Shown in pieces: positions 886 through 59,251 of a stretch of 64,000 bases of DNA (position 1 is the stretch's first letter; every line of letters begins with the position of its first letter). The notes under the pieces are model-generated. The model was given only the letters and a program-made list of their open reading frames with translations, was not told the origin of the DNA and did not search any database. Where the stretch lies: positions 86,824-150,823 of the forward strand of contig CAKPSF010000001.1 of the NCBI GenBank assembly GCA_934183305.1, in the 5' to 3' direction. This DNA comes from an uncultured Clostridia bacterium. GTDB taxonomy: Bacteria > Bacillota > Clostridia > TANB77 > CAG-508. A program made the position numbers and the translations under genes.

Positions 886-1188
886 AGCATCATCTCCCAT
901 TTACATTCTATTAGTACTAGGTTTTCATTATGCAATAATTTATTTATAAAGTTCCAACCTACCACTGGTTGATTTGGAACTTTATGGATATTTAGTTTCA
1001 AAGAAACATTAATTTTCTGTTAATATTAATTAGTGATTTTTTTAAAATAATTTTACTAATAGTTAAAATTTAATGCATTATTATCTTGACAATATCTTAA
1101 AATTGGTATATTTTTAGAAATGGAAAAAATAGGTAATTTTCAAATTGTCTATTTTTCTAAAAACACACTAAAGAAAAAATAAACTACC

Positions 1189-1198
1189 TTGATATAAT
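1189..1198 (+). promoter_or_regulatory. extended -10 element (TTGATATAAT) upstream of LytTR regulator gene
   Basis: TGnTATAAT match about 28 nt upstream of GGAGG RBS and ATG at 1226; no clear -35. Confidence 0.35.
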
Positions 1199-1225
1199 GT
1201 TTTTATTATATGGAGGAATTTAAGA

Positions 1226-1966
1226 ATGATAAACTTTGTTATCTGCGATGATAATTTAAACATCGCAAAAAAACTAAAAGAAATGTTTGAGATTTTATTT
1301 GTCAAAAATGATATTGAAGCAGAAATAAAATTTGTAACAGATAACCCAAATGAAGTTTTGGAATATGAAGAAAATAACACAGTTGATGTGTTAATATTAG
1401 ATATAAATTTAAATTCTAATATTTCAGGTATAGATGTGGCCAAAAAAATTAGAAAAAAAAATAAAAAAATTTATATAATTTTTTCAACTGGTCATCTAGA
1501 GTATTCTCTTGTTGCTTATTCTGTAAAAACATTTGACTATCTTCCTAAACCTGTAACTTTAGAAAGGTTAGAAGTAACATTAAATAGATTATTAGAAGAT
1601 TTAAATAATAATCCCTCTAACACTTTTATAAAAATTAATAATAAAACTATTATTAACCAAAAAGAAATCTATTTTATAAAAAAGGATGGAATGAAGCTTG
1701 TATTTTGTACTAATTCTGGAGAATTTGAGACATATAATTCATTAGAAAAAATACAAAACACATTACCAACTAATTTTGTACGTTGTCATAAATCATACAT
1801 AGCAAATACACAGCAAATATTAAATATTAATAAAAAGGATAATTCAATTATCTTTACTAACAACCAAACATGCGATATTGGTGAAAAATATAAAGATAAT
1901 ATAATGGGGGTTTTTAATTATGGAAATTTTACAAATAATTTGGACAGCTTTAACAACAGAAAATGA
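1226..1966 (+). CDS. agrA: LytTR-family response regulator (AgrA-like)
   Basis: N-terminal receiver domain (VICDDN..., D in ILDINL) plus C-terminal LytTR DNA-binding domain; RBS GGAGGAATTTAAGA-ATG; adjacent to agrC-like kinase and convergent agrBD. Confidence 0.8.
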   Translation: MINFVICDDNLNIAKKLKEMFEILFVKNDIEAEIKFVTDNPNEVLEYEENNTVDVLILDINLNSNISGIDVAKKIRKKNKKIYIIFSTGHLEYSLVAYSVKTFDYLPKPVTLERLEVTLNRLLEDLNNNPSNTFIKINNKTIINQKEIYFIKKDGMKLVFCTNSGEFETYNSLEKIQNTLPTNFVRCHKSYIANTQQILNINKKDNSIIFTNNQTCDIGEKYKDNIMGVFNYGNFTNNLDSFNNRK

Positions 1967-3269
1967 ACTGTTAACAAAAATACTTTTTATACCTGAAACT
2001 TTTTTAGAAACATTTATTGGAATGCTACTTTTTACAAGCATACTAAATATTACTGTTTCTAAGAAAACAAAAATAAAATATATAATATATTTTTCAATAT
2101 TAGCTAATATAATTAGTTTTGTGATTCCAAATCCATACCGTTCATTTATAAACTTAGCATTAATGTTAATATTTATTAAAATATTATTTAAAACCAATAT
2201 TATAAAAACTATTTTAGCAGTAATACTTCCAATACTAGTAACTGTACTATGTGAATCAGTAATCACAAGATTATTCTCATTCGCTTTAGATTTTAACAGT
2301 TTAACTTTACGAACTATTCCAATATATAGATTATTAGTTGCTTTAAGCATACAATTTTTAGCATTTATTATTTATATTTTTATTAAATACTTTAAGATAC
2401 AAATATCAATACTCGAAAATATTTCTAAAAAAAGTAAGATTTTAATTATTATAAACTTAATTTTTGCAATATTAGCTTTATCCATTCAATTTTTTATTAC
2501 AGGTTTTTATTTAAATAAATTACCAGTATACATTGTGTTATTTAGTAATTTAAGCTTAATATTATATTTCATTCTTAGTTTATATAGTCTTACTAAAACT
2601 ACTCAACTTGAACTCACATCATTAAACTTAGAACAAGAAAAAGAAAGTAATAAGATATTAAAAGATTTACAAGATGACTTACATGGCTTTAGACACGATT
2701 TTACAAATATAATGTGTACAATTGGTGGTTATGTACAAGTTAAAGATATGAATGGATTAAGCAAATATTATTCTCAAATTCAAAAAGATATAAATAAAGT
2801 AAATAATTTAGGTGCATTAAACCCAGAAACAATAAACAATCCGGCTGTTTTTGTTTTAATTTCTTCAAAATATAGTAAAGCTTTAGAACTTGGAATTGAA
2901 ATGAATATAAATATTTTTATAGATCTAAATAAACTTAATATGAAAATTTATGAATTCACAAGAATTTTAGGAATATTATTAGATAATGCAATTGAAGCAT
3001 CAAAAGAATGCAATGAAAAAATAATAAATATTGAAATGAGAAAAGATTCTAATCGTAACAGACAATTATTAATAATTGAAAATACTTTTAACAATAAAGA
3101 TGTCAATACAGAACAAATATATGAAAAGAATTATTCTACAAAATCCGGAAATAGTGGACTTGGTTTATGGGAAGTTAGAAAAATATTAAATAGAAATAAT
3201 AATTTAAACCTCTTCACTACAAAAAACGAAAAGTTCTTTAAACAACAACTTGAAATATATAATAATTAA
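1920..3269 (+). CDS. agrC: HPK10-type sensor histidine kinase (AgrC-like), 6 TM helices + GHKL ATPase
   Basis: Polytopic N-terminus, H-box (LHGFRHDFTN), N/G boxes (LDNAIEAS, SGNSGLGLWEVRKIL); start at 1920 overlaps regulator by 47 nt; a later Met start is possible. Confidence 0.75.
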   Translation: MEILQIIWTALTTENELLTKILFIPETFLETFIGMLLFTSILNITVSKKTKIKYIIYFSILANIISFVIPNPYRSFINLALMLIFIKILFKTNIIKTILAVILPILVTVLCESVITRLFSFALDFNSLTLRTIPIYRLLVALSIQFLAFIIYIFIKYFKIQISILENISKKSKILIIINLIFAILALSIQFFITGFYLNKLPVYIVLFSNLSLILYFILSLYSLTKTTQLELTSLNLEQEKESNKILKDLQDDLHGFRHDFTNIMCTIGGYVQVKDMNGLSKYYSQIQKDINKVNNLGALNPETINNPAVFVLISSKYSKALELGIEMNINIFIDLNKLNMKIYEFTRILGILLDNAIEASKECNEKIINIEMRKDSNRNRQLLIIENTFNNKDVNTEQIYEKNYSTKSGNSGLGLWEVRKILNRNNNLNLFTTKNEKFFKQQLEIYNN

Positions 3270-3276
3270 CAAGATT

Positions 3277-3327
3277 AAAGGATAGAAATTTAAGATTACA
3301 CAATTATTTCTATCCTTTATTTTTTTA
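3277..3327 (+). terminator. rho-independent terminator after agrC (stem AAAGGATAGAAAT/ATTTCTATCCTTT + T7)
   Basis: 13-bp perfect stem followed by ATTTTTTT immediately 3' of agrC stop. Confidence 0.7.
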
Positions 3328-3447
3328 CTAGTCTTTCTTTATTAAAGAAGCTGGCATTTTTGGTTGATGCCACCACCCAAATATATTGCAAGCTGTATTT
3401 GTAGATTTAGCATATTTTTCTGCTACTTTAGCTAATAATTTTAACAT
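3328..3447 (-). CDS. agrD: AgrD autoinducing-peptide precursor, 39 aa (MLKLLAKVAEKYAKSTNTACNIFGWWHQPKMPASLIKKD)
   Basis: Hand-translated small ORF missed by the 60-aa ORF track. GGAGG RBS 8 nt upstream. Amphipathic N-terminal helix, single Cys, and an HQP motif, as recalled for clostridial AgrD. Lies immediately downstream of agrB. Confidence 0.75.
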   Translation of the reverse strand: MLKLLAKVAEKYAKSTNTACNIFGWWHQPKMPASLIKKD

Positions 3448-3503
3448 AACAAAATCCTCCTTAGTTAATTTCTTTATAATAAATCGTGCCGGCCACAATT
3501 TTA

Positions 3504-4127
3504 TTAACTTAAATTATTTTCATTTGCATAGACTTCATATCCATATTTGCAGTTAGCTACTTTATATGCAACCTTAGTTATCATTAAGCTTTGCATAAAT
3601 ATTCCTAGTATTATTATGTTTGATATAACATTGTTATTTATAAATATCCCTATTGCCAAAGTTATGCTAAGTACTATATATGATAAGATTTGTTTTATCC
3701 TTCTATCTTTTTTTCTTAATATTGGTACATTTTCAGTATCTGCTGGTGAATATAACTTGCACATTATCATTCCAAATATCCATGTTAAAACAATGCAAAT
3801 AATCTTAGTTTGTATATCTAATTCAAATGTTTTACTAATATATGGAATTCCACAGTAAAATGTACTTGTTCCTATAATACATCCCAAATGCGTTTTTAAG
3901 TGAAAACCACCTGAGAATGCTCTATAAGGGAAAATAACTAACACACACAAGAAAAACTCTTTTAAAACTCCTAATATAATGGCAATTGCAATAAATATAA
4001 ATGTTTTAGGCACTTCCCCTACTATTAAATGTATGCCATAATTTATTACTTCTGCTCTTTCCTCACTTATTTCTGGCATTTTCTGTTTTATTTTACTGGT
4101 TAAATAATCACAGATTTTATCTACCAT
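3504..4127 (-). CDS. agrB: AgrB accessory gene regulator B (AgrD-processing membrane endopeptidase)
   Basis: about 200-aa polytopic membrane protein with conserved His/Cys pair (FHLKTHLGCII); AGAGGAG RBS; immediately upstream of agrD. Confidence 0.8.
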   Translation of the reverse strand: MVDKICDYLTSKIKQKMPEISEERAEVINYGIHLIVGEVPKTFIFIAIAIILGVLKEFFLCVLVIFPYRAFSGGFHLKTHLGCIIGTSTFYCGIPYISKTFELDIQTKIICIVLTWIFGMIMCKLYSPADTENVPILRKKDRRIKQILSYIVLSITLAIGIFINNNVISNIIILGIFMQSLMITKVAYKVANCKYGYEVYANENNLS

Positions 4128-4212
4128 AATTGTCTCCTCTTTTGTTTTCTTATGAGGCTATTTTATATTAATTTTTTCTATATAATTTATTTTGAATATA
4201 AAAGGTGTTTTT

Positions 4213-4262
4213 TAATATATAAAAAGGTTATAAATCATTTTCATAAACAATTTATAACCTTT
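4213..4262 (-). terminator. rho-independent terminator downstream of rluA-family gene (14-bp stem)
   Basis: Perfect inverted repeat AAAAGGTTATAAAT...ATTTATAACCTTTT with flanking A/T runs, just 3' of stop at 4271 on minus strand. Confidence 0.6.
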
Positions 4263-4270
4263 TATAAAAT

Positions 4271-4957
4271 TCACATAATGTCAAAATCTTTTATCATTAC
4301 CCACGGACCAATTGGTTCTGGAATATCTGTGAAAGTCATGCTTTCTTTAGTTATTGGGTGTTCTATTGTAAGTTTATACGCCCATAATGAAATTTGTTTT
4401 CCTCTTCCGCGAGTTCCGTATTTTTGGTCGCCACATATGCTATGTCCCATTCCTGCTAATTGAACTCTAATTTGATGATGTCTACCTGTATGTAGTAAAA
4501 TTTTTAGCAAAGATAAGTCTATTTCCTCATTATATTTTAAAACTTCATATTCTAACTTAGCATATTTTGAACCAGGTGTATTTTCTTTAACAATTTTGCT
4601 TGTGTTTGTTTTTTCATTTTTTAATAAATAATCTTCTAATATTCCTTTGTTTCTTTCAGGCTTTCCATCAACTATTGCTAGATACTCTTTTTTGAAAATC
4701 TTTTCTCTAACTTGATTACTAAGCCTTGAAGCTGCTTTAGATGTTTTTGCGAATACCATAATTCCACCAACCGGTCTATCCAATCTATGTACTAAACCTA
4801 AATATACATTTCCCGGTTTGTTATACTTTTCTTTTAAGTATTCTTTTATTAAAGTTAACATATTTACGTCTTCTGTTTTATCTCCTTGTGAGGGAATATT
4901 TGGTGGTTTTTCCACAACGATTATATGATTATCTTCGTATATTATTTTAAGATTCAT
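4271..4957 (-). CDS. RluA-family pseudouridine synthase
   Basis: HRLDRPVGGIMVFAKT catalytic motif; probable start at 4957 (MNLKIIYEDNHIIVVEKP) with GGGAGAAAT RBS; ORF track extends to 4987. Confidence 0.75.
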   Translation of the reverse strand: MNLKIIYEDNHIIVVEKPPNIPSQGDKTEDVNMLTLIKEYLKEKYNKPGNVYLGLVHRLDRPVGGIMVFAKTSKAASRLSNQVREKIFKKEYLAIVDGKPERNKGILEDYLLKNEKTNTSKIVKENTPGSKYAKLEYEVLKYNEEIDLSLLKILLHTGRHHQIRVQLAGMGHSICGDQKYGTRGRGKQISLWAYKLTIEHPITKESMTFTDIPEPIGPWVMIKDFDIM

Positions 4958-5822: not shown

Positions 5823-5936
5823 TAATATTTTTGCACACCAAAATAAAGGTATTGCACTCCCTTCTTTTCATATACCCTATATTTTAACATATTTTTAATT
5901 ATTTTTCTATCTTTTAGGAATAAATAAGAATAAAAA

Positions 5937-6262: not shown

Positions 6263-8047
6263 TTATAATTCGTTTTTTAGTTTTTCTGCCAAACTTTTTG
6301 TTATTCCTTTTGTTTGCATTAATTCTTCCATTGTTGCATTTTTAATTTTATCTACACTACCAACTTTCTTTAAAAGTTCTTTTTTCTTTGCTTCTCCAAT
6401 TCCTTCAATTTCATCTAATTTAGATTTTGTTATCTCACTATCTCTTAATTTTCTATGATATTCAATTGCTGTATCATGTACAGTATCTTGAAATCTAGTA
6501 ACTAAATTCATTAGATCCTCTGTTAATTCTATTTCTTGTTTTTTGTCATCAATTAGGGCTCTAGTCCTATGTTTATCATTTTTAACCATACCATAAATTG
6601 GAATATTTAAGTTCAACTCATTTATAGCTTCTTTGGCTGCACGTATTTGAGTTATTCCACCATCTACAAATATTACATCAGGTAATTTTCCAAAACCACT
6701 GTTTGAGCTATTTATTGAATGCTTTAATCTTCTTGTTATTACTTCTCTCATACAAGCAGGATCGTCTTGATCAAATAGAGTTTTTATTTTAAATCTTCTT
6801 GATAACTTTTTATCTATAACGCCATCTTTTAATACGCACATGCCTGCAACAATATTAGTTCCAGACAAGTTAGAGATATCATAACATTCAATTTTTCTTG
6901 GAAGATTTTCTAAATTCAATATTTCTTTTAATTCATTTAAGATATTAAATTTATCATTAACTTTATTTTCTAATGTAACTTTAGCATTGTTTTCTGCCAT
7001 TTCCACAAATTTAAGTTTCTCACCTTTTTGTGGATGTCTTATTTCCACTTTCCTATTTGCTTTCTTAGATAAAATTTCTTCTATCAATTCTTTATCTTCT
7101 ATTTCTTTGCTTATCATTATTTTACTAGGTAAGTTTTCATTATTCAAATAATATTGTTTAACAAATTGAGATAATAATTCTTCATCTTTTAACTCATTTA
7201 AATCATTAAAAAAATAATTCTCTCTTCCAATCATTTTGCTTTGTCTTACAAAGAATAGTTCTATACATGCAGTTAGTTCATTTCTTGCAATTCCTATTAC
7301 ATCTATTGCATTTTCATTAATATTTGATACTTTTTGTTTTTGTGATATATTTTCTATTGCTATAACTTTATCTCTTAAATATGCTGCTTTTTCATATTCT
7401 TGTTTGCTTGCCGCTTCCATTATTTCATCTTTTAGTTTTTTTATAAGTTTTACAGACTTTCCATCTAGCAACTCAATTATTTCCTCAATTTGCTTTTTAT
7501 AATCTTCTTTTGATACCATATTAACACATGGTCCTAGACACCTACCAATATGATAATTTAGGCAAACTCTTTTATTAGATTTAAAACTCTTGCATTGTCT
7601 TATTTTAAATTTTTGTTTAATAAAATCCACCATTTCTTTGGCACTTCCTGGATTTGCATATGGTCCAAAATATTTCGCACCATCATTTAAAATTTTTCTA
7701 GTAGTATAAATGGTTGGATATTCCTCATTTAAAGTTATTTTTATATATGGATATGTTTTATCATCTTTTAATAAAACATTAAATTTAGGTTTATTTTTCT
7801 TAATTAAGTTACACTCTAAAATTAACGCCTCAGCTTCATTATCTACAATAATATATTCAAAATGATCAATTAAACTAACCATCTTTTCAATTCTAGTAGT
7901 TTTATTATTTTTTCTAAAATATTGTCTTACTCTATTTTTTAAAGAAACTGCCTTTCCAACATAAATAATGTTATCATCTTTATCGTGCATTATATAAACG
8001 CCTGGCTTCGAAGGAAGTTTCTTAAGTTCTGCTTCTATATTAAACAT
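6263..8047 (-). CDS. uvrC: excinuclease ABC subunit C
   Basis: N-terminal GIY-YIG (PGVYIMHDKDDNIIYVGKA...NRVRQYF), UvrBC-interaction and C-terminal HhH regions; 594 aa. Confidence 0.92.
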   Translation of the reverse strand: MFNIEAELKKLPSKPGVYIMHDKDDNIIYVGKAVSLKNRVRQYFRKNNKTTRIEKMVSLIDHFEYIIVDNEAEALILECNLIKKNKPKFNVLLKDDKTYPYIKITLNEEYPTIYTTRKILNDGAKYFGPYANPGSAKEMVDFIKQKFKIRQCKSFKSNKRVCLNYHIGRCLGPCVNMVSKEDYKKQIEEIIELLDGKSVKLIKKLKDEIMEAASKQEYEKAAYLRDKVIAIENISQKQKVSNINENAIDVIGIARNELTACIELFFVRQSKMIGRENYFFNDLNELKDEELLSQFVKQYYLNNENLPSKIMISKEIEDKELIEEILSKKANRKVEIRHPQKGEKLKFVEMAENNAKVTLENKVNDKFNILNELKEILNLENLPRKIECYDISNLSGTNIVAGMCVLKDGVIDKKLSRRFKIKTLFDQDDPACMREVITRRLKHSINSSNSGFGKLPDVIFVDGGITQIRAAKEAINELNLNIPIYGMVKNDKHRTRALIDDKKQEIELTEDLMNLVTRFQDTVHDTAIEYHRKLRDSEITKSKLDEIEGIGEAKKKELLKKVGSVDKIKNATMEELMQTKGITKSLAEKLKNEL

Positions 8048-19120: not shown

Positions 19121-19295
19121 AACAAATCTCCTTAATATTTCATATTACTTATTATACCCATTTTAATAATATGTTTCAATAAAATTTAACCAAAATATAA
19201 AATATAATTTTTTTCTTGTGTTTTTTTGCGGGTTATGGTAATATAATGTTGCATTTATAAATTTTTTGTAAAAATTTACGAAAGGAGATGTTGTT

Positions 19296-31933: not shown

Positions 31934-32518
31934 TTACTCTGCCTTATATTTTATTTTTATATTTTGAATATCAACTTTAAATTTGCTAGGAGGATCTGTT
32001 CTAGCAAGTCTAAGACTTAAATATATTTTCTTATCTTTATTTTTTATATAATTTCTATAAAGGTTTGGTTTAAGTTTAAAAGTAAAAGTATTTTTTGTTC
32101 CAATATTCTGACTAGGATATCTAACTTGATATACAAAATCTTTTTTATATTGATTAGGCGTATCTATACCCATGCCTATTCCGCAACAAATAATAGTATC
32201 TGGCTTTTTTTCTTTTATTATATAATCAAATGAAATTATATAGGTATTTTTTTCATTTATTTCTATTCCAGTAAAATAATCTATATAATATCCATTGTAT
32301 GGATCATTAACTGCTGTATCCGAATACCTTTTTACCAAGTAACCAGCAATAATATCTGATGCATCGTCTGTTTTTGATGTTATTTCTTGTCCAACAACAT
32401 AAGCAGCATCATCTACATTATTAGATGATGTACCCAATATTCGTATTCCAAATGTTATTAATAATATTACAATTAATACTGCTGCTGCTATTAATAACGC
32501 TTTTGATGCATTTTCCAT
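31934..32518 (-). CDS. membrane-anchored protein with one copy of a jelly-roll/CBM-like module shared with the downstream 633-aa protein
   Basis: N-terminal hydrophobic anchor MENASKALLIAAAVLIVILLI; C-terminal CCGIGMGIDTPNQYKK...RLARTDPPSKFKVDIQNIKIKY parallels the CGIGYGT...FVRTNSKASVNVDISSMQLEYG repeats. Confidence 0.5.
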   Translation of the reverse strand: MENASKALLIAAAVLIVILLITFGIRILGTSSNNVDDAAYVVGQEITSKTDDASDIIAGYLVKRYSDTAVNDPYNGYYIDYFTGIEINEKNTYIISFDYIIKEKKPDTIICCGIGMGIDTPNQYKKDFVYQVRYPSQNIGTKNTFTFKLKPNLYRNYIKNKDKKIYLSLRLARTDPPSKFKVDIQNIKIKYKAE

Positions 32519-32540
32519 TTTATTACCTCTATTTATATAG

Positions 32541-34394
32541 TTAATCTAATGTATATCCATCATATTCAATTTCTATTTTTGATGGTGCAACTTCTGTTAC
32601 AATTTCAATTTTAGTATAATCTTCATATGCTGGTAATTCTGGTAATGCAATACTTTCATATACAGTTTCACTTAAAGAATATAAATTTCCATTTGAATCT
32701 ACTCCTGTATTTCTTGCTATGCATTGTTTTCTAAAATCTATATAATCAGCATAATTTCCAGTTTTTCTTAATGGTTCATCTAAATATATATTTACTACTG
32801 AACTTACTTGTTCTTTATAAGGTACATAGTCTGTTGCAGTTTCTCCATATTCAAGTTGTACAGAACTAATATCTACATTTACGTTAGCTTTTGAATTTGT
32901 TCTTGCAAATCTTATAAATAGAAAATTGTTATTACCTATATCAGATGGTGTAGTAAATGTAACAACATGTCTTCCATTTGTTTTATTTGGGTATTTCTTG
33001 GTATAGATTATGTCACTGCTATAAGATTTTGTTCCATATCCAATGCCACACCCAATGTCATCAGTTGTCAAATTCACTTTATAATCAAATGATAATGTGT
33101 ATGTGCAGTCAGGTTGTAAAAAGAAATCTGTGGTTGTATTTATAAAATAATTATTCTCATATGACAAATTAAAGTCCGACACATTTATTAAGTTAACTGC
33201 ATTTTTTACATTTTCGCTCTTTATTTGTATTCTGTATTTGCCATAAGGTGTGTACGCTGTTGCTATTGTTCCATATTCAAGTTGCATAGAACTAATATCT
33301 ACATTTACACTAGCTTTTGAATTTGTTCTTACAAATCTTACAAATAAATACTTCTCATCCCCTATGTCGGTTGGCGTAGTGAATGTAACAACATGTCTTC
33401 CATTTACTTGATTTGGATATTTTAATTCTCTCATATCACTTGAATAAGCACTTGTACCATATCCAATACCACAATAAAGAGTACCTGATGTCGAATTTAC
33501 TTTATAGTCAAATGATAATGTATATGTGCAATTAGGTTTCAAAAGAAATCCTGTTGCTGTATCCCTATAATAGAAATCTTCATATGCTACATTAAAATCT
33601 GGTATATTTATTAAATTTACTGCATCTCCAACACTCTGCATTTCGCAAGGTACATAATCTGTGGCTGTTGATCCTTTTTCTAGCTGTATATTTTTAAATT
33701 TTACATTAAGATTAGTATTTGCTCCATTATTTCCTTGCAAGTTAAACCCAAATACTTCTAAATCACTTTCTATTGTGAATTTTATTGATTTTCTTTCCCA
33801 TTGTTTTGGTGTTATATTTACATATTCTCTATATGAGCTATTGTCTTTAAATAATACTCCTACTCTAACTTGTTTGGTTCCCGCATCATCATCTGCCATT
33901 ACATCAAATGAAAACGTATATGTTCCTGCTTTAAGAACACTAACATTAGATTTCATAAAACAATAGCTTACTCCACTACTAACTGTATTTGTAATTACTC
34001 CATCTGAAATAGTAGAAATGTTAGTTTTAGAACCATTTGAGTAATAAAAATCAGTTACTGAATTTATATTAAATAAATTAACACTTTGGGTCGTGTTTCC
34101 GTATATTCTATAGTTAACTAATTTACTTTCAAATGTTTTTTCCAATTCTAAGGTATTAGAATTATCAACATACGCAGTTAAATTTTGTCTATTCTTTTTT
34201 CTTAAATCGGTATATACATCTGTATAAGATGAACTATCATTTGACTTATAATAGATTTCTTTGATTAAACTAAATTGTTCTTTTAATGATTTAGAATTAT
34301 TTATAACATTGGCATATGATATTATTAAAAAGCCTATCATAAATAATAAAGTTACCAATGTAAATATTGAAATTGAACCTTTTGCTTCTTTCAT
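32541..34394 (-). CDS. membrane-anchored surface protein with three tandem ~150-aa jelly-roll/carbohydrate-binding-like repeats each ending QLEKG/QLEYG-xxATDYVP
   Basis: Probable start ATG 34394 (MKEAKGSISIFTLVTLLF, AAAGGAG RBS); three internal repeats (NCTYTLSFDYKVN...CGIGYGT...RHVVTFTTP...NVDISS.QLEYG.TATDYVPY). Confidence 0.55.
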   Translation of the reverse strand: MKEAKGSISIFTLVTLLFMIGFLIISYANVINNSKSLKEQFSLIKEIYYKSNDSSSYTDVYTDLRKKNRQNLTAYVDNSNTLELEKTFESKLVNYRIYGNTTQSVNLFNINSVTDFYYSNGSKTNISTISDGVITNTVSSGVSYCFMKSNVSVLKAGTYTFSFDVMADDDAGTKQVRVGVLFKDNSSYREYVNITPKQWERKSIKFTIESDLEVFGFNLQGNNGANTNLNVKFKNIQLEKGSTATDYVPCEMQSVGDAVNLINIPDFNVAYEDFYYRDTATGFLLKPNCTYTLSFDYKVNSTSGTLYCGIGYGTSAYSSDMRELKYPNQVNGRHVVTFTTPTDIGDEKYLFVRFVRTNSKASVNVDISSMQLEYGTIATAYTPYGKYRIQIKSENVKNAVNLINVSDFNLSYENNYFINTTTDFFLQPDCTYTLSFDYKVNLTTDDIGCGIGYGTKSYSSDIIYTKKYPNKTNGRHVVTFTTPSDIGNNNFLFIRFARTNSKANVNVDISSVQLEYGETATDYVPYKEQVSSVVNIYLDEPLRKTGNYADYIDFRKQCIARNTGVDSNGNLYSLSETVYESIALPELPAYEDYTKIEIVTEVAPSKIEIEYDGYTLD

Positions 34395-34572
34395 TATTTT
34401 TTCTCCTTTGCGTATATTTATAGTCTTCCCATTTTGCCACATTTATAATATTATAAAATTTTAAAAAATTCAATAGTTTAACTATATAAATTATAGTTTA
34501 TCTAATAGAAATATATATATTTCTATTTTTATTATTGCTAACTTCCAAATTAATATTTCTTACTTATTCCAA

Positions 34573-39711: not shown

Positions 39712-40365
39712 TTAATTTATTTTTCCAAATACATTTAATGGCCAAAATCTAAATACAATTTTTCCTTCTATTTTGCTATATGGTATACATCCTAATCTTC
39801 TGGAATCCATGCTATGACTTCTGTTATCACCCATTACAAAAACTGTATTTTCTGGAACAATTACATCTAAGAATTGTCCACCTTGTACGTCGTCTGTTAT
39901 AACATCATCTGATAAATATTCTTCTTTTAATTGTTCCCCATTTATATATACTTTTCCGTCTTTTATTTGCACATGTTCACCTGGAAGTCCCACTACTCTT
40001 TTTATATAACTTGTTTTGTTAATTTCTACAACATTATAAAAAAACTTTCCTATTAAGCTTTTAGGTTCATTATTATATATTGCTGTTGGATGTTCTAAAT
40101 CCGCTTTTTCTCCGTTTAAGTATGATACACTTGGTGCTTCGAAGGTAATAATATCTCCTCTTTTAGGTGTTGTTTTGCATGTTCTATATAATCTATTTAA
40201 TATAAGTCTATCTTTATTATTAAATGTTGGATACATAGATGTTTGCTTTACTATTGTTGGAGTCCCAACATAATATCTAACCAATAGCGCTAATACAACT
40301 GCTATTATAATGCAATATATCCATTCTATAATATCTTTTATTTGTGCTTTTTTCTCTTCGCTCAT
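39712..40365 (-). CDS. lepB: signal peptidase I (S26 family)
   Basis: N-terminal TM, catalytic Ser region (TSMYPTF) and Lys box; GDNRSHSMDSR motif; 217 aa. Confidence 0.85.
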   Translation of the reverse strand: MSEEKKAQIKDIIEWIYCIIIAVVLALLVRYYVGTPTIVKQTSMYPTFNNKDRLILNRLYRTCKTTPKRGDIITFEAPSVSYLNGEKADLEHPTAIYNNEPKSLIGKFFYNVVEINKTSYIKRVVGLPGEHVQIKDGKVYINGEQLKEEYLSDDVITDDVQGGQFLDVIVPENTVFVMGDNRSHSMDSRRLGCIPYSKIEGKIVFRFWPLNVFGKIN

Positions 40366-40501: not shown

Positions 40502-43500
40502 TTAATCTATTACATATTTTTTAATTGTCCATACACCTGCTGCTAATATTGTTACTGATATAAATGTTAACCATATATATGTTTTCGCTCCTGCTGTTTT
40601 TATTGATAATATTACTTTTGCATCGTCTATATCGTCTTCGTCTTTTTTAAAGTTGTCTGGTGTTGAGTCTATATCATCTCCTGAGTCATCACTTATTTCA
40701 GCATAGTTTGTTTTTACTCCTAAGTTTGTTGCAGAGTTTTTCCATGTTAATACTATTTCTACTGTTGCACTTTCTCCTGGATTTAATAATGTATCTTTTA
40801 GTTTGTCTGTTACTACTTGACCATCTTTTAATTGTTTCCAATCTTTGTTATCTTCTTGTCTGAATTCTAGTCCATTAGGAATATAGTCTTTTACTTCGTA
40901 TGCATATCCAGCTGTTTCTCCTTCATTTATAACTTTTATGCTATATACAAATTTTACAGTTGTTTTATTTAAATTCTTAGCTACTATATCAACTTTTGCT
41001 ATATCGTCTGTATCTTCAGTAAATCCTGTTTTTGTAGTAGTTGTTTTTCCGTTAACAGTTACTCTTATTTCTGTTACCCATTTTTTAAGTGCTAAATCGA
41101 AGTATTTTACTTTAATATATTCTTTATCTAAATCGTCTTCTGTTTCAACATTATTATCTGGTACTGAGTCTATATCGTCTCCATTATCTTTTGATATTTC
41201 AGCTGTATTTACTATTATACTATTTGTTTTTCCTTCTGCTACAACTTTAAATGCAACTTTAACATCTTTATAGCTTAATACTTTTTGTCCATTTTCTTGA
41301 ACAAAGCCTTCTATAACTTCATCTTTTAATGCGTCAGAAACAATATATTTTGCTTTTGTAACATCTGTTACTTCATTTCCATTTTCATCAAGTGCTTTCC
41401 AATTATATTGTTTATTCATTTCGTTATCTGGTAAGAATTCTAATCCTTCTGGAATGTTATCTTTAATTTCTGTTGCAGTTCCTGCTTTTTGGCCTTCATT
41501 ATATACTCTTATTGTATAAATAATTACATCATTTGTTGTAACTATTACTGGGTCTTTTGTATGTTTATATGTTATGCTTCCATCTTCGTTAAATATAACT
41601 TCTGGATATCTATTGTTATAGTCTTCTTTGTTAACTTTTGTAATAAATTTTCTTAATGCTAAGTCAAAGTATTGTAGCTTTATTGGTTCGTAATCAATAT
41701 CGTCTTCGTTGTTTCCTGTTTCATAGTCATATTTTTCATCCCTGTTTGGAATTGAGTCTATATCTCTATCACTATCTGCTGATATTTGAGCTACGTTTTT
41801 AATTATATTGTCTTCTAATTTTTTAGCTGTTGCAACTACTTTAAATTGTACTTGTACATCTTTATAAGCTAAAACTTTATTTCCGTTTTCGTCTAATGAT
41901 ACAGCATTTATTTTATTTGCAACATCAACGTCTGATAAATAATCTGTAGTTATCATAACTGCTTCATCCAAGTTAGTTGTTTCGTTACCATCTTTATCTA
42001 GCATTTTCCATTTGTATGAAACATTTATTGAACTGTTTGGTAAGAATTCTAATCCCTCTGGCATGTCATCTGTTATTTCATTTGCAAAACCTGCTAAAGT
42101 TCCTTCATTATATATTCTTATTGTATAAGTTACTATGTCTCCAGTATTAACTATAACTGTTTCTTTTGAATGATTATATGTAGCTGTTGTTATTGTTTTA
42201 CCATTTAGTCCTTGTGTTCCTAATTTACTTGTATCTACAATTGGCTCTCTTGAATATGTTGTATCGTTAACTTTTGTAATGAATTTTCTTAATGCTAAGT
42301 CAAATTCTTTTACTATTAACTTTTCAAAGTCATCATCATCTTCTTGTCCTGGAATATATGTATTTTTGTCTGATGATAAAGCTTCTTCATTTTTATAATC
42401 TGATAAATTGCTATAATCTACATTTGCTAAACTTGAGTCTTTTCCATCTCCAATGTTTCCATTTATATCTTCTGCATTTGTGATTTCAGCTATATTTGTT
42501 AAATATTCATCTCCAACAACACTATCTGTTACTAAACATTTTATTTGAACTTCAATATAATCTAGTGTATCAGATCCTGGAACATATGCTTCAAGTTTTG
42601 TATCTTCAACAGTTTCATATCCTTCAATTAGTGAATATGTATCACTACTATCTTTTGAAGTTTTAGTTGTTTTTACTGTTTTTCCATTGTCTGTATATGT
42701 CCATCCCCAATCAAGGTTAAATTTAATTTCGTTTTGATATTTTGTAGCATCTATTCCATCTATTCCTTCTATAATAGGTAATAAGTTTTCTGGTAGATGA
42801 TCTGTTATTTCATTTACATATCCAGCAATTTCACCTTCGTTATATACTCTAATTTTATATGTTACAACATCACCTTTTTGTACTGCAATTGGTTGTTTGC
42901 TATGTTTATATGTTGCTGTTCCTGTAGTTTCAATTGTTGAAGTATCAACTATTGGTTCTCTTGAATATTTGGTTCCACTTATTTCTGTTATAAATTTTCT
43001 TAATGCTAAGTCAAAGCTTTTATGTGTATTTGTAATTGTAAATGTATCTTCGCTATATGTTGTTGTATATTCTGAGTTATATTTTTGATTGTTTTCTACT
43101 ACATTTCCGTTTTCATCTAATTCTTTTACAGTATATTCAATTTCTACACCATTTTCTTTTAATGGTAAATCTGTCCATGTGTATGTTAATTCATTTTCTT
43201 GCCAAATATTATCTTCACCAGCAGTTAATGTAATAGGTTCGCCATATGGTTCACCATTTTTATATAATTGGATTTTTATTACATTTGGTCTATTTACATA
43301 GTCTCCATCATTCCATTTTTTCACTACTGTTTTCGAAGTTTTATTTGGTTCATGTATATTGGTAATTTTAGTTGTATTTCCATCTACATCATATCTTATA
43401 TGATATCCTGCTGCTCCTTCTTCATTTGATACAACTGTGTCTCCAATTTTTATCTCTTTTACTGTATAGTTGATAGTTACACCATTTTCTTTTTCTGGTA

Positions 43501-45490
43501 ATCCTGTCCATGTATATGTCCAGCTATTTTCCATGTTTAAAACAACATCTTCTCCAACAGCTAAACCATTTGCATATAATCTAACTGTTATACTATCTGG
43601 TCTTATTCCATCAGAATTGTTATTATCGTCCCATGCTTTGGTTACTGTTTTATTTACTGTACCTGGTGTGTATTTGTTTGTTATTGTAAATGTATCGTCT
43701 GAATATGATACTGTATAATTATTCGGAACTGTTTCTTCAGTTGTATATTTTATTAGATTACCATTTTCATATTTAGGTAGATTATTCCATGTATATGTCC
43801 AACCATTTGAGGCATTTAATATAACATCACCATTAATTTGTTGTTTTATATTATTTACAGTTTTAAATAATTTAACTACTATTTCATTCGGTCTTGTTCC
43901 ATCTTGGTTGTTAGCATCATCCCATTTTTTCACTACTGTTTTTGATACTACTTCTGGAATATGTGTATTTGTTATTGTAGTTTTATCTCCAGATATAACA
44001 TATGTTGCTTTGTAGTTTGCATTTAAGCTTTCATTGTTTTCTACTGCTGTATTGTTTGAATTTAATTCTTTCACAGTGTATGTATATCCGCTTAATAATT
44101 TATCCCAAGTATACTTCCAATTATTTGAAGAATTTAAAGTTACACTTTCTCTATAAGCAATTCCATCTCTATATAATTGTACTTTTACTGAAGTAGGCCT
44201 TACACCATCTTGGTTATTAGCATCTTCCCATTTTTTCTCCACTTCAATTTTAGTTATATTAATTGGTATTTCAATTTTTAATGGAACTTCATGTTCTGTA
44301 TTTCTAATTATAATAACTGGTTGAACAGATTCTGGATCTGATGTATTAGTAGAGAATATTAAATCTCTTGTATCATATAAGTATGTTGCTTCAATAGTTA
44401 CAACTGTACTTGTTGTTATTTCACTCTTATCAATTCTTAAATAAAAATTATTATTCATTACTTTTGAGAAGTCATTTTCTGATACTACATTTCCTGAAGC
44501 ATCAAGTAATGTATAATTTTTATTAACACTAAATTCTATTGATTTTGCATATTCTGCATTTTCTGCTGATAAATAATATGGACCAACAGTATAGTCATTT
44601 TCATTTTCTTTAACTACACTATTAGCTCCAGTTATTTTAATCACTGGTGTTTTTCTTGTGTAATCTGCATTCTCATTTGCATTTGTTATAAAATAATTAT
44701 ATAAATCTCTTGCTTTTGAAGCCCTTTTAGCACCGGTTATTGCTCTACCATATTTATCCGTTCCTACTGTTACTGATGACATCTCATGGCCATTTAAATA
44801 AAGGTTTGGTAAATTTTCGTTATGATATATACTATCATCTTCATTGGTAAAATACCATATTGCCATTTGTTGAACTACTTCTATATCGTCTTCTGTTAAA
44901 TTGTATAATACTTCATTGTCAATAGTTATACCTGTTTTTTTCATAAAAGCCTTATATGCATCTGATGTTTGATAATTTTCATTTCCTGTTGCTATATAAG
45001 AATTATCGGCAATCCACATAATCTTGTTATAATTTTTTATTAAATCTCCGCTTGCATAGCTTTCAATTCTTGATTTATTTGTTTCTTCCGCCATATCAAG
45101 TTCAATGTTGTAAATGCCATTTTTTTCTCTCATTTCACCATTAAATTGGAATCCTCTTCTAGCATTTAAACAATACATTCCATCTTTTATATTCCAATTT
45201 GGCGTTGTTGCAGTTAAAGAAGAATATTGTGCAACTTTCCACACATTGCTTCCTTCACCAACTGTTGGAACATTCCATTGATAGAAATTTCCAGAAGCCC
45301 TGTTCTTTACTATTCCTATTACTTTTGATGTGGTTGTATTATTGCTTGAAGCTCTAACAACATTGGCTCTATTCAATGTTAAATTACTAAATGCTGATGT
45401 TATTTCAATTGCTTTTGTTTCTTTAAATCCAAAACACATCAATGTTACTAGTATAATTGCAAATAATCTTAATAATTTACTCTTCTTCAT
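40502..45490 (-). CDS. 1662-aa cell-surface adhesin-like protein: signal peptide, N-terminal domain, 4-5 Cna-B-type repeats, 4 DUF11-type repeats, C-terminal hydrophobic anchor + KKYVID tail
   Basis: Repeats VVKKWDDANNQDGTRPNEIVVKLF (Cna B) and FDLALRKFITKV...YSREPIVD (DUF11-like); no canonical LPXTG but IKTAGAKT precedes the C-terminal TM segment. Confidence 0.7.
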   Translation of the reverse strand: MKKSKLLRLFAIILVTLMCFGFKETKAIEITSAFSNLTLNRANVVRASSNNTTTSKVIGIVKNRASGNFYQWNVPTVGEGSNVWKVAQYSSLTATTPNWNIKDGMYCLNARRGFQFNGEMREKNGIYNIELDMAEETNKSRIESYASGDLIKNYNKIMWIADNSYIATGNENYQTSDAYKAFMKKTGITIDNEVLYNLTEDDIEVVQQMAIWYFTNEDDSIYHNENLPNLYLNGHEMSSVTVGTDKYGRAITGAKRASKARDLYNYFITNANENADYTRKTPVIKITGANSVVKENENDYTVGPYYLSAENAEYAKSIEFSVNKNYTLLDASGNVVSENDFSKVMNNNFYLRIDKSEITTSTVVTIEATYLYDTRDLIFSTNTSDPESVQPVIIIRNTEHEVPLKIEIPINITKIEVEKKWEDANNQDGVRPTSVKVQLYRDGIAYRESVTLNSSNNWKYTWDKLLSGYTYTVKELNSNNTAVENNESLNANYKATYVISGDKTTITNTHIPEVVSKTVVKKWDDANNQDGTRPNEIVVKLFKTVNNIKQQINGDVILNASNGWTYTWNNLPKYENGNLIKYTTEETVPNNYTVSYSDDTFTITNKYTPGTVNKTVTKAWDDNNNSDGIRPDSITVRLYANGLAVGEDVVLNMENSWTYTWTGLPEKENGVTINYTVKEIKIGDTVVSNEEGAAGYHIRYDVDGNTTKITNIHEPNKTSKTVVKKWNDGDYVNRPNVIKIQLYKNGEPYGEPITLTAGEDNIWQENELTYTWTDLPLKENGVEIEYTVKELDENGNVVENNQKYNSEYTTTYSEDTFTITNTHKSFDLALRKFITEISGTKYSREPIVDTSTIETTGTATYKHSKQPIAVQKGDVVTYKIRVYNEGEIAGYVNEITDHLPENLLPIIEGIDGIDATKYQNEIKFNLDWGWTYTDNGKTVKTTKTSKDSSDTYSLIEGYETVEDTKLEAYVPGSDTLDYIEVQIKCLVTDSVVGDEYLTNIAEITNAEDINGNIGDGKDSSLANVDYSNLSDYKNEEALSSDKNTYIPGQEDDDDFEKLIVKEFDLALRKFITKVNDTTYSREPIVDTSKLGTQGLNGKTITTATYNHSKETVIVNTGDIVTYTIRIYNEGTLAGFANEITDDMPEGLEFLPNSSINVSYKWKMLDKDGNETTNLDEAVMITTDYLSDVDVANKINAVSLDENGNKVLAYKDVQVQFKVVATAKKLEDNIIKNVAQISADSDRDIDSIPNRDEKYDYETGNNEDDIDYEPIKLQYFDLALRKFITKVNKEDYNNRYPEVIFNEDGSITYKHTKDPVIVTTNDVIIYTIRVYNEGQKAGTATEIKDNIPEGLEFLPDNEMNKQYNWKALDENGNEVTDVTKAKYIVSDALKDEVIEGFVQENGQKVLSYKDVKVAFKVVAEGKTNSIIVNTAEISKDNGDDIDSVPDNNVETEDDLDKEYIKVKYFDLALKKWVTEIRVTVNGKTTTTKTGFTEDTDDIAKVDIVAKNLNKTTVKFVYSIKVINEGETAGYAYEVKDYIPNGLEFRQEDNKDWKQLKDGQVVTDKLKDTLLNPGESATVEIVLTWKNSATNLGVKTNYAEISDDSGDDIDSTPDNFKKDEDDIDDAKVILSIKTAGAKTYIWLTFISVTILAAGVWTIKKYVID

Positions 45491-45833: not shown

Positions 45834-45908
45834 TGGAGGCGAGTATCGGAATCGAACCGATGAATCAGAGTTTTGCAGACTCGTGCCTTACCGCTTGGCT
45901 AACTCGCC
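45834..45908 (-). tRNA. tRNA-Cys (anticodon GCA)
   Basis: Hand-folded cloverleaf: acceptor GGCGAGT/ACTCGCC, D-arm GCC-AAGCGGTAA-GGC, anticodon loop CU-GCA-AA, T-arm ATCGG-TTCGATT-CCGAT, discriminator U73 (Cys identity), encoded CCA; one C-U mismatch at pair 27-43. Confidence 0.8.
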
Positions 45909-45922
45909 ATATAAAGATAAAA

Positions 45923-45998
45923 TGGAGCGGGAAACGGGGCTCAAACCCGCGACCTCTGCCTTGGCAAGGCAGCGCTCTATCAACTGAGCTATTCCCGC
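45923..45998 (-). tRNA. tRNA-Gly (anticodon GCC)
   Basis: GCGGGAATAGCTCAGTTGATAGAGCG-CTGCC-TTGCCAA-GGCAG-AGGTC-GCGGGTTTGAGCCCCGT-TTCCCGC-T-CCA; canonical cloverleaf, encoded CCA. Confidence 0.88.
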
Positions 45999-48434: not shown

Positions 48435-49823
48435 TTATTCAAAACTAAATGACATTGTGTAATTCATTCCATCTTTTATGCTTACTACAACTGTAAGCTC
48501 TTTGCTTTCATTATTATTTCTTAAATTAATTATTTCACATTTAAACAAATTGTAATTTTCTTCTTGGTATATATCTATTATGCTTAAATCATTCAAATAA
48601 TAGAAGTTTTTATTTATATATGTTTTTAAAGCTTCAATGGTTTTAAAGTTATTATTTTTAAAAGTACTATCTAGGTTATTGTATATTGATTTATAATCTT
48701 TTGCATTTATTTTTTGTATTAAAGCTTCAACTTGATATTTAGATTTACTTAATTCTGTAGCATCTTGGTATTCTTTCTTTGTTGATTCTGGCAATATTGT
48801 ATAATTATCTAAAAAGAATGAATATCTCATTATTCCATTTTGTTCTCTAAAGATATAAGTATTATTATATCTATCTACACATTTATAATCTATATAATTA
48901 TTATTTGTCTCAATTCCATATTTAGATAACTGCATTAATTGTATAGTTTCCTTGTTATCTATTAAATAACTCTCAAATTCATTTTTGCTACCAAATCTTT
49001 TACTGCTATATTCCGAATCCAACTTATTATATGCATCATCTTTATAATATAATAACAATTCTTTTAAATTTTCAAAATACTTATTTACCATTTCATCATC
49101 TTCAACTTTTATGTAAGAAAATGTGTTATTATTTCTATTATTAATATCTTCTTTATTGTAGTTTGAGACTACCTCACCAATTTTAATTTTATCAATTCCA
49201 TTGTCCTGTATATATTGATAAGGATATAAATTATATAATTTATTAACTGAATCAACTTCAATCATTGCTTTAATACTAAATATTATATTTTTTCCAACTA
49301 TTCTACATTTACCATTTACTATGTATAAAGATGTAGAACTATCTAATTGAACTGTTGTCATATCAGTAACTGTATATTTATAATATTGATAGTTATTATC
49401 CTTTTCAGGAACTGTTAATTTATCAAAAATATTATTTTTAGTTATGTTATATTTATTTATATACTCTGGTGATAAAATTGACATTAATTTATTTTCATTT
49501 TTATTTTCAAGTATGCTAATATAATTATCAACTATTGATACCATTGTAAAATAATCTGATCTATTATTAACATATTCTAGTTTATTATTTATTTCGTTTG
49601 AATATGGTATATTACTATAATCCCCATCTTTAGGCATTTGTTCAGATGTTTGTGTATTGTTATAATCCACATTTGTATTATTAGATATATTATTTCCACT
49701 AATAATATTGTCAGGATTTTTCTTATTTAATAATAAAATCATTCCTAAAAGTATAATAATTAGTATCATAATAATTATCATACACAATATAATTTTATTT
49801 TTTTTGTCCATATAACCCTCCAC
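48435..49823 (-). CDS. T4SS-cluster bitopic membrane protein (462 aa, N/Y-rich extracytoplasmic domain), unknown function
   Basis: N-terminal TM anchor; last gene of the operon, 0-nt gap to the hydrolase gene. Confidence 0.45.
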   Translation of the reverse strand: MEGYMDKKNKIILCMIIIMILIIILLGMILLLNKKNPDNIISGNNISNNTNVDYNNTQTSEQMPKDGDYSNIPYSNEINNKLEYVNNRSDYFTMVSIVDNYISILENKNENKLMSILSPEYINKYNITKNNIFDKLTVPEKDNNYQYYKYTVTDMTTVQLDSSTSLYIVNGKCRIVGKNIIFSIKAMIEVDSVNKLYNLYPYQYIQDNGIDKIKIGEVVSNYNKEDINNRNNNTFSYIKVEDDEMVNKYFENLKELLLYYKDDAYNKLDSEYSSKRFGSKNEFESYLIDNKETIQLMQLSKYGIETNNNYIDYKCVDRYNNTYIFREQNGIMRYSFFLDNYTILPESTKKEYQDATELSKSKYQVEALIQKINAKDYKSIYNNLDSTFKNNNFKTIEALKTYINKNFYYLNDLSIIDIYQEENYNLFKCEIINLRNNNESKELTVVVSIKDGMNYTMSFSFE

Positions 49824-51251: not shown

Positions 51252-51266
51252 AAATTTCTCCTATTA

Positions 51267-51776
51267 TCAATCATAAACATATATCTTGCTATCTAGTATT
51301 TCATTTTCTATGCTAAACTTAAGCTCTTTTGTTAAGTCTTGTTTTCCAGTTGATATTGCACTTTCTTTAAGAACAACTATATAGTTTTCTTTTGAGGTAT
51401 AGATTCTATATTCTTCAATATCCACATTAAAATATTTCTGTACATAATTTTCATTAAATAAATCTATTGAATTATATCTTGCCTTTTTACAATTGTCAGA
51501 CACCATTGAATATGCATCCTGTAATCGTTTATTTTTGCAGTACTCTATAAATATTTCAATATTTTTTTTGTCTATTTTACTTTCGTTAATATTATTTTTT
51601 TCAGTATTATTTTGGTCTTCAATATTTACTATCGCTGTATTTGATTGTTTTTGTTCTACCGCTTTATTATTCAACCATTGAAGAACTAATATTGCCAACA
51701 CTATAACAAATAAAATTTCAAAAAGAAGTTTACCATATGATACAAAAAACAATCTTATATTTCTTTTTATATCCAT
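51267..51776 (-). CDS. T4SS-cluster small bitopic membrane protein (169 aa; possible VirB8/NTF2-like or Orf13-like)
   Basis: Single N-terminal TM plus ~130-aa extracytoplasmic domain; sits between the VirB6-like and hydrolase genes. Confidence 0.35.
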   Translation of the reverse strand: MDIKRNIRLFFVSYGKLLFEILFVIVLAILVLQWLNNKAVEQKQSNTAIVNIEDQNNTEKNNINESKIDKKNIEIFIEYCKNKRLQDAYSMVSDNCKKARYNSIDLFNENYVQKYFNVDIEEYRIYTSKENYIVVLKESAISTGKQDLTKELKFSIENEILDSKIYVYD

Positions 51777-51796
51777 AGTAAACCTCCTTTTTATTA

Positions 51797-54745: not shown

Positions 54746-54762
54746 TTAAATGTTCTCCTTTT

Positions 54763-56709: not shown

Positions 56710-56714
56710 ATTAT

Positions 56715-57917: not shown

Positions 57918-57918
57918 T

Positions 57919-58257: not shown

Positions 58258-58385
58258 ATTTTTCCTCCCAATAATAGCATTATATATCTTATTATATTAT
58301 AACAAAAAACCTTACAAATTGTAAGGTTTTTGTCTAAAAATATTAAATTTTTAATATATTTGTAACATTATTGTAACAATATATA

Positions 58386-58742: not shown

Positions 58743-58807
58743 ATAATTTCCTCCTTTTCTTTTTTATAATTTATTTTAAATATCTTAATTTTAAATTTAA
58801 GATAACA

Positions 58808-59182: not shown

Positions 59183-59251
59183 TTATAATCCCCTCCTTTA
59201 TTATTAGTTTAACATAATTATACAATATTTAACAACATTTTGCAAATTTTT

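Follow-up and report, generated by a model that had tools for sequence, protein, structure and literature searches.

Which peptide does a complete agr-type quorum-sensing locus of an uncultured gut bacterium make as its signal, and by what changes does the specificity of that signal evolve? The question is raised by a locus in a stretch of 64,000 nucleotides (nt) from an uncultured Clostridia bacterium (assembly GCA_934183305.1, contig CAKPSF010000001.1, positions 86,824 to 150,823 of the forward strand), referred to here as the window, in which an AgrA-like regulator and an AgrC-like kinase face a convergent pair of genes for the membrane peptidase AgrB and the propeptide AgrD. A first-pass annotation made from the sequence alone had described a complete agr-type locus; all four components are matched by curated models at the positions it gave, and the map of open reading frames (ORFs) and domain searches bear out its gene assignments and the convergent agrA-agrC and agrB-agrD layout. 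We consider it likely that the locus specifies functional, chromosomally encoded quorum sensing by an autoinducing peptide (AIP) in uncultured, spore-forming, low-G+C gut Clostridia, through a mechanism with a seven-residue ring. To a broader proposal we would give about an even chance: that the AgrD family makes a seven-residue AIP ring, a size so far undescribed for agr, that human and animal gut Clostridia hold well over 100 specificity groups (pherotypes) of this system, and that new specificities come about through coupled change in the six agrD core codons and the agrC sensor half alone, two segments separated by conserved DNA, with AgrB and its recognition elements held fixed.

The AgrD propeptide consists of a leader, M1-A19 (MLKLLAKVAEKYAKSTNTA), followed by Cys20, a variable core, N21-W26, and a follower, H27-D39 (HQPKMPASLIKKD), which carries a Pro-x-x-Pro motif. 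A word-seeded search of public data recovered 2028 homologues, and a profile search of 1.84 billion representatives only 69; we take the family to be tight, sharply bounded, and very abundant. In an entropy profile built from 162 distinct 39-amino-acid (aa) family sequences, the leader and follower are nearly invariant (mostly <1 bit) and His27 is strictly so (0.00), and exactly six positions, 21-26, are hypervariable at 1.6-3.6 bits, giving 149 distinct cores with no variation in length. Phe23 and Gly24 are the least variable positions of the core, and positions 25-26, with 2.4 bits, are limited to W, F, L, I, V, M, and Y. Position 20 is Cys in 149 of the 162 sequences and Ser in the remaining 13 (entropy 0.40), and lactone and thiolactone forms would therefore coexist in one close family. 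Cores of the Ser20 members include ASPMFGWW and ASYILGWL.

That so small an ORF is a gene is indicated by several lines of evidence. It passes the AgrD model TIGR04223 with 30.2 bits against a cut-off of 19 (E value 3.5e-7), and, as expected of an agr propeptide, it lies just downstream of agrB and combines a central Cys/Ser with a hydrophobic core and a Pro-bearing follower. Its ATG start at 3447 is preceded, 8 nt upstream, by a ribosome-binding site of its own, GGAGGA, and the gene begins 56 nt past the agrB stop. We rejected as the start of AgrD a TTG-initiated ORF of 56 aa (3328-3498), as conservation begins at the ATG; the "KED/EE" residues that precede it in homologues are the translated ribosome-binding site. 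A comparison of 14 distinct orthologous agrD genes gave 624 synonymous and 204 nonsynonymous differences over the 33 noncore codons, as opposed to 57 and 314, respectively, for the six core codons, and the peptide is therefore judged to be translated and under selection, which outside the core appears to be purifying. The first-pass annotation had called this AgrD unannotated, and this did not hold up: the exact 39-aa sequence is already called as a gene in NCBI, ENA, and Logan, and a close relative has been named "cyclic lactone autoinducer peptide" by JGI.

In characterized AgrDs the variable part is the signal, and AgrB cuts just ahead of the conserved follower. The register common to other species has a Pro six and a Leu or Ile nine residues past the cut, as in ...CDFIM|DEVEVPKEL of Staphylococcus aureus, CLWFT|HQPEEPKSL of Clostridium perfringens, CVLVTL|YEPKMPEEL of Clostridium acetobutylicum (whose follower has the same register as HQPKMPASL), and ...GQWM|GQTEKPKKNI of Enterococcus faecalis. 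Applied to the AgrD of the window, this register places the cut between Trp26 and His27, which would give the macrocycle [CNIFGWW]. The likeness between the Cys...HQP arrangement and clostridial AgrDs, remarked on in the first-pass annotation, is confirmed by the AgrD1 propeptide of Clostridioides difficile, which reads ...ANSTCPWIIHQPK, that is, CPWII|HQPK (PMC8534292); as the accepted AIP of that species is ANST[CPWII] (PMC12312760), its AgrB must cut directly before HQP. The Pro-x-x-Pro element has been proposed as the AgrB recognition motif (PMC8748961). The ring CNIFG that had been predicted for the window is thus not the favored one, since Cys20 sits seven residues before HQP and the six that intervene are all hypervariable; the accompanying suggestion that the ring might extend over the Trp pair is the better reading. 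The spacing of six residues between Cys20 and His27 holds in all 162 sequences, in contrast to four in C. difficile, and with the predicted cleavage site it differs from that of a five-residue ring. Further, the restriction of positions 25-26 to bulky hydrophobic residues resembles the C-terminal residues of the AIPs listed in a 2025 primer (PMC12312760, Table 1).

More distant relatives carry a follower of the same type (HQP/YQP) after four, five, six, or more residues past the Cys/Ser, and for this reason the distance to the follower appears to determine ring length. The relatives P0169, P0177, P0200-P0203, and P0208 have five residues in this interval (C-x5), P0171 and P0188 have longer spacings, and in P0209 the sequence CIVFG stands directly before YQP (YQPKVP). 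One of the C-x5 relatives keeps the same convergent locus beside yabP-yqfD. Ring length in this lineage thus seems to be set by insertions and deletions in the core. These relatives bear on a reading that we hold to be improbable, in which the product is of intermediate or other size, either a six-residue ring, [CNIFGW], or a peptide modified or trimmed after AgrB has acted. Six-residue rings have clostridial precedents in CVLVTL of C. acetobutylicum and CWFWSY of Ruminiclostridium cellulolyticum, and close C-x5-HQP relatives exist; however, there is no sign of a boundary between positions 25 and 26, and in the C-x5 relatives the follower has moved one residue nearer the Cys, which supports cutting before HQP and not a fixed ring size.

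The receptor provides a further indication of where the signal ends. In one species, represented by the loci L002, L012, and L018, the flanks, AgrB, the regulator, and the kinase half of AgrC are 97.7-100% identical, whereas the sensor half (AgrC residues 1-230) is only 67-87% identical, and the cores are CSLFGWF, CTLFGWW, and CTMFGWW. The same is seen in a second species (L015 and L016), with 98.5-99.6% identity in the former regions as against 79% in the sensor half, and with the cores CILFGVW and CFVFGVW. Between the window and L001, the kinase half is 92% and the sensor 70% identical, and the cores differ at positions 2 and 7. Profiles of nucleotide identity accordingly show two separate dips, at the agrD core and at the agrC sensor region, with conserved kinase-domain DNA and the terminator between them. 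Thus, the joint variation of signal core and receptor sensor by which agr specificity groups are recognized is found in same-species allele pairs, and we interpret it as the signature of a working ligand-receptor pair. Core position 7 (residue 26) varies between same-species alleles along with the sensor domain, and AgrB is 98-99% identical between them; since this last position changes with the receptor as AgrB stays constant, it is likely to belong to the signal. AgrB thus lies outside the variable region, which accords with the constancy of leader and follower and implies that the enzyme accepts nearly any hydrophobic core. We propose that specificity evolves by coupled change of the six agrD core codons and the agrC sensor half, which would generate many pherotypes.

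Against this stands the reading that the same agr system makes a thiolactone of the canonical five residues, [CNIFG], tailed or tail-free, by a cut after Gly24, so that Trp25-Trp26 would be a loosely constrained spacer and the follower would be WWHQPKMPASLIKKD. Five-residue rings are by far the commonest among characterized AIPs (PMC12312760, Table 1), conservation within the core is highest at Phe23 and Gly24, and the arrangement C-I-V-F-G|YQP of the distant P0209 would fit a CxxFG five-residue ring followed, in the window, by a two-residue spacer. Yet positions 25-26 vary as much as the other core positions while admitting only bulky hydrophobic residues; position 26 shifts with the sensor domain under a nearly constant AgrB; the conservation boundary is sharp at His27 and not past Gly24; the C. 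difficile precedent has the cut directly before HQP; and a C-terminal Gly is atypical for an AIP. Taken together, we regard the five-residue ring as unlikely and the seven-residue macrocycle [CNIFGWW] as the probable signal. Besides the low variability of Gly24 and the P0209 arrangement, other points weigh against the seven-residue ring. The macrocycles listed in the 2025 primer have five, six, or nine residues, and seven is absent (PMC12312760). The invariant STNTA ahead of the Cys gives no hint of an N-terminal cut, and ring size, tail length, and the choice between thiolactone and lactam are all deduced from sequence patterns. Our literature search on seven-membered AIPs found none, and a full-text search with motifs of the AgrD family found no paper on the family, the compounds synthesized in a study mining the human microbiome for AIPs (PMC11953309) lying outside that comparison.

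The readings differ in the masses that they predict. The computed [M+H]+ values are 907.392 for cyclic CNIFGWW, 978.429, 1079.477, and 1193.520 for its forms with the tails A-, TA-, and NTA-, 721.313 for cyclic CNIFGW, and 535.233 for cyclic CNIFG. The released follower would be HQPKMPASLIKKD of 1491.823 Da after the seven-residue-ring cut, as opposed to 1863.982 Da for WWHQPKMPASLIKKD after the five-residue-ring cut.

The remaining components are those expected of a working agr circuit. AgrB matches PF04647 at 7e-39 over profile positions 2-185 of 185, and its Arg69, Gly74, His76, and Cys83 align with R70, G75, H77, and C84 of the S. aureus enzyme. These four S. aureus residues are needed for AgrD cleavage (PMC10196373). 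No sequence relative of AgrB was found among solved structures. The kinase has the features of the AgrC type (HPK10), namely, a polytopic sensor, an H-box His, and a GHKL ATPase domain: simple hydropathy places about six to seven hydrophobic segments in residues 20-221, and His259 lies in an FRHDF H-box, followed by an N-box at 355 and a G-box at 413. It is recognized by the HATPase_c_5 (AgrC/ComD-type) Pfam model at 1.4e-15 and by the NCBIfam AgrC model at 2.7e-33 over positions 5-413 of 414, with a score of 115.8 bits that is far under the equivalog cut-off of 500. The kinase module of S. aureus AgrC (6e52) is its closest solved relative (3e-23), with FRHDF aligned to FRHDY. The alignment with characterized homologues that the first-pass annotation had proposed as a check thus leaves the AgrB catalytic residues in register and AgrC aligned with 6e52. 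The regulator combines a Response_reg domain (5.9e-16) with a LytTR domain (3.1e-18; both Pfam) that matches solved AgrA domains, and Asp59 is the probable phospho-acceptor. It gives full-length matches to the AgrA, LytR, and BtsR models that fall below their equivalog cut-offs; with 66.7 bits on the AgrA model against a cut-off of 400, it is a protein of AgrA architecture and not an AgrA equivalog. The regulator and kinase genes overlap by exactly 47 nt, as first described, and all of the orthologues retain such an overlap, of 32-47 nt.

In three relatives, L016, L006, and L007, agrC is broken just past the H-box. L016 has a Q267* change (CAA to TAA, ~5836-5838) relative to the near-identical allele of L015; L006 (~6419-6435) and L007 (~6435-6439), from two species, have in common a 1-nt insertion (GGA-C-GG) near agrC codon 271, past which the frame remains open and conserved. 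The interrupted genes could be agr-null variants, split kinases, or the result of a shared ancestral lesion.

On the basis of these observations, we envisage the following mechanism. The agrB and agrD genes would be cotranscribed, and AgrB, through the catalytic His76 and Cys83, would cut AgrD just before the follower and join the new C terminus, Trp26, to Cys20, yielding the thiolactone macrocycle [CNIFGWW]; the invariant leader would then be removed. Tail-free AIPs, namely, Rc-AIP1 of R. cellulolyticum and that of C. acetobutylicum, rearrange to homodetic cyclopeptides (PMC8251862; PMC12312760), and if the window peptide likewise has no exocyclic tail, as in other clostridial AIPs, its thiolactone may rearrange to a homodetic cyclic heptapeptide. 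The AgrC-like kinase would sense the peptide through its polytopic N-terminal domain and is expected to autophosphorylate on His259 and to pass the phosphate to Asp59 of the regulator. The regulator probably activates agrBD through two 9-bp repeats upstream of agrB, which would tentatively close an autoinduction loop. The agrA-agrC unit appears to have a conserved, near-consensus promoter of its own, and the 47-nt overlap suggests translational coupling.

The noncoding elements called upon in this scheme differ in how well they are defined. A hairpin with a 14-bp stem and a 16-nt loop lies between the two stop codons, with folding energies of -16.3 and -14.8 kcal/mol (z = -5.1 and -4.3) on the + and - strands, respectively. 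Hairpins of differing sequence occupy this position in all orthologues, which means that the structure, and not the sequence, is conserved. A pattern scan for terminators over 900-4400 found nothing, as the loop exceeds the 8-nt limit of that scan. The terminator region that had been described as shared is so only in part: the hairpin is common to both units, but a good U-tract, TTTATTTTTTT, follows it on the + strand alone, the - strand having only the poor AATCTTGTT. The probable promoter of agrA-agrC scored 10/12 in the consensus scan; its TTGACA (1086-1091) is invariant in 12 of 12 orthologous upstream regions, with a -10-like element 17 nt downstream. Just beyond it lies an element, TGGAAAAAATAGGTAATTT (~1119-1139, + strand), that every orthologous locus retains, even the distant ones. 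A portion of it contributes to an imperfect palindrome (1125-1156), and the element may act as an operator or within the 5' untranslated region.

Upstream of agrB, past the rluA terminator, TTTTATATA and TTTTATATT form a pair of 9-bp direct repeats separated by 12 nt, with a period of 21 bp. The second box ends 67 nt ahead of the agrB ATG and ~26 nt upstream of a -10-like element, TAATAT/TATAAAAT. Period and position (57-70 nt to the start codon) are kept in 12 of 15 orthologous upstream regions, and the conservation reaches loci with an AgrB of just 53-60% identity. LytTR sites are typically built of two 9-bp repeats around a 12-bp spacer, and for this reason we tentatively read the pair as a candidate autoinduction site of the regulator. 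Our confidence in it is low, given the AT-rich DNA and a consensus defined post hoc from these very sequences; with that qualification, the window holds 4 matches to the pattern where 0.51 would be expected by chance. Of the other three, the match at 4239-4268 (+ strand) is the palindrome of the rluA terminator, and those at 19254-19283 (- strand) and 55369-55398 (+ strand) were judged to be due to chance, one of them adjoining an ORF for a small membrane protein that precedes a SpoU methylase gene, the second lying inside a gene. The first of the proposed boxes also overlaps the tail of the rluA terminator, and the boxes do not have the GTT core that we take to mark the AgrA boxes of S. aureus. 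The wider circuit also has no known target genes, and all of the sequences come from metagenome assemblies, with no isolate among them. These points likewise temper the scheme.

The genomic setting is that of a resident locus. The window forms part of a 507-kb metagenome scaffold with 27% G+C, and the nearest species-level genomes are all metagenome-assembled genomes of uncultured Clostridia or Clostridiaceae from human (Hadza), rabbit, and chicken guts. On the agrB side the neighbors are uvrC, a methyltransferase gene, and rluA; on the agrA side they are a polysaccharide deacetylase gene and the sporulation genes yabP and yqfD. The order methyltransferase-rluA-agrB-agrD, convergent agrC-agrA, deacetylase-yabP-yqfD is the same in genomes from human, rabbit, and chicken guts, and it persists across species whose flanking proteins are only ~78-80% identical. 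As judged from gene order, the locus sits in a fixed chromosomal context and not on a mobile element. The locus L009 comes from a strain whose flanking genes, as far as they were compared, match the window exactly; between uvrC and the methyltransferase gene it has a DUF7387/HicA toxin-antitoxin-like pair (2087-2511) that is absent from the window.

A further relative, L017 (4388-5195), has an AgrD family member with the core CAVWAVL, which lies with agrB beside infC-rpmI-rplT and a PMT_2 glycosyltransferase gene; this agrBD is an orphan pair with no adjacent kinase or regulator.

The possibility that the locus is a decaying or nonsignaling remnant, or that its peptide serves mainly for interference or some other role and not as the autoinducer of the adjacent two-component system, can draw on the disrupted agrC of L016, L006, and L007, on the agrBD of L017 with no agrCA beside it, and on the lack of a known regulon. 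We consider it very improbable, given that the window and most orthologues have all four genes intact, that the locus is syntenic across the species divergence noted above, that strong purifying selection acts on the leader and follower of AgrD, and that the AgrD core and AgrC sensor covary.

In kind, the system is a clostridial agr that standard models recognize, and its interest lies in the size of the ring and the richness of pherotypes. C. difficile Agr1/Agr2 and the AgrBD of C. perfringens (with VirSR) share the AgrD design, with a short leader ending in T/S-x-Cys, a hydrophobic core, and HQP plus Pro-x-x-Pro, and their AgrB is likewise of PF04647. Their rings, however, have five residues (CPWII and CLWFT; PMC12312760), as against seven from Cys to HQP in the window, and the C. 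difficile agr1 and C. perfringens loci lie without an adjacent agrCA, whereas the window has a cognate kinase and regulator. The AgrD of C. perfringens is nearly invariant (PMC6534674), in contrast to the hypervariable family described here. C. acetobutylicum and R. cellulolyticum (Rc-AIP1) have, like the window, separate agrBD and agrCA and a macrocycle of more than five residues (six, CVLVTL and CWFWSY). The window is distinguished from them by the predicted seven-residue ring, by a regulator gene that precedes and overlaps that of the kinase, by units that converge on one hairpin, and by large allelic diversity.

S. aureus agrBDCA shares with the window the four components, the catalytic residues, and a joint divergence of AgrD core and AgrC sensor with conserved kinase domain and regulator. 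There, however, a single operon carries one contiguous hypervariable region, which runs from the end of agrB through agrD into the start of agrC, and a divergent RNAIII is the effector; in the window AgrB is not variable, two variable segments are separated, the region corresponding to the AIP tail is invariant, and the operon is not of the agrBDCA type. Core variants number at least 149 in the window family compared with four groups (I-IV) in S. aureus. The difference in layout from Staphylococcus noted in the first-pass annotation stands but is not in itself new, given that separate agrBD and agrCA units have already been described in clostridia (PMC12312760). No RNAIII-type effector is known in clostridia (PMC12312760), and no Rfam family matched in the agr locus of the window, hence no RNAIII-like element. 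The gelatinase biosynthesis-activating pheromone (GBAP) of the E. faecalis Fsr system, QN[SPNIFGQWM], has in common with the window family a ring of more than five residues and a ring-forming Ser, which some members of that family (13 of 162) have in place of Cys. Its NIFGQW also resembles the NIFG-WW of the window core, with a mid-ring Phe-Gly and then aromatic or hydrophobic C-terminal residues, which may be a coincidence. GBAP differs in being a nine-residue lactone with a two-residue tail from an fsrBDCA locus, whereas the leader and follower of the window are of the clostridial HQP type. The features that appear to set the window system apart from known clostridial agr are thus the predicted seven-residue ring, the gene order and convergence, the limitation of variability to the AgrD core and AgrC sensor, and the number of variants.

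Agr signaling has been studied almost exclusively in pathogens and a few industrial clostridia; the present family is well delimited and abundant and belongs to uncultured gut Clostridia. The sequence pattern predicts, together with the seven-residue ring, a substrate-tolerant AgrB (~150 observed cores with leader and follower unchanged) and a natural library of matched peptide/sensor pairs. If the seven-residue ring is correct, one AgrB would have to cyclize nearly any hydrophobic hexapeptide after the Cys; if the ring is the ordinary five-residue one, the locus is just another clostridial agr system. Such a library would be useful for following the evolution of AIP-receptor specificity and might supply orthogonal signaling parts, and the family bears on strain-level interference among gut commensals.

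Features of the agr locus, in coordinates of the window
Feature	Positions	Strand	Basis
Probable agrA-agrC promoter (TTGACA, 17 nt, TATTTT)	1086-1114	+	Consensus scan; function presumed
AgrA-like response regulator (REC + LytTR), 246 aa	1226-1966	+	Pfam
AgrC-like sensor histidine kinase, 449 aa	1920-3269	+	Pfam, NCBIfam, PDB match
Hairpin between convergent units	~3277-3319	.	Folding
AgrD propeptide, 39 aa	3328-3447	-	TIGR04223
Codons of predicted macrocycle Cys20-Trp26 (CNIFGWW)	3370-3390	-	Entropy profile; ring size predicted
AgrB membrane peptidase/cyclase, 207 aa	3504-4127	-	PF04647
Candidate regulator (LytTR) site, paired 9-bp repeats	4195-4224	-	Repeat conservation; tentative

Elsewhere in the window, two adjacent ORFs of 194 and 633 aa (31934-34442, - strand) have no Pfam match at E <= 1e-4. 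An S26 signal peptidase gene (39712-40365, - strand) adjoins that of a 1662-aa surface protein (40502-45490, - strand) with a thioester domain, four Cna_B repeats, and DUF11, which is probably a covalent adhesin or pilin-like. The stretch 48435-64000 has the look of a conjugative or integrative element, with two tRNA genes (45837-45998) at a distance of ~2.4 kb. Within it are a cell wall hydrolase with CHAP and glucosaminidase domains (49824-51251) and a VirB4/TraG-like ATPase (54763-56709), and two large proteins of 462 aa (48435-49823) and 982 aa (51797-54745) have no Pfam match.

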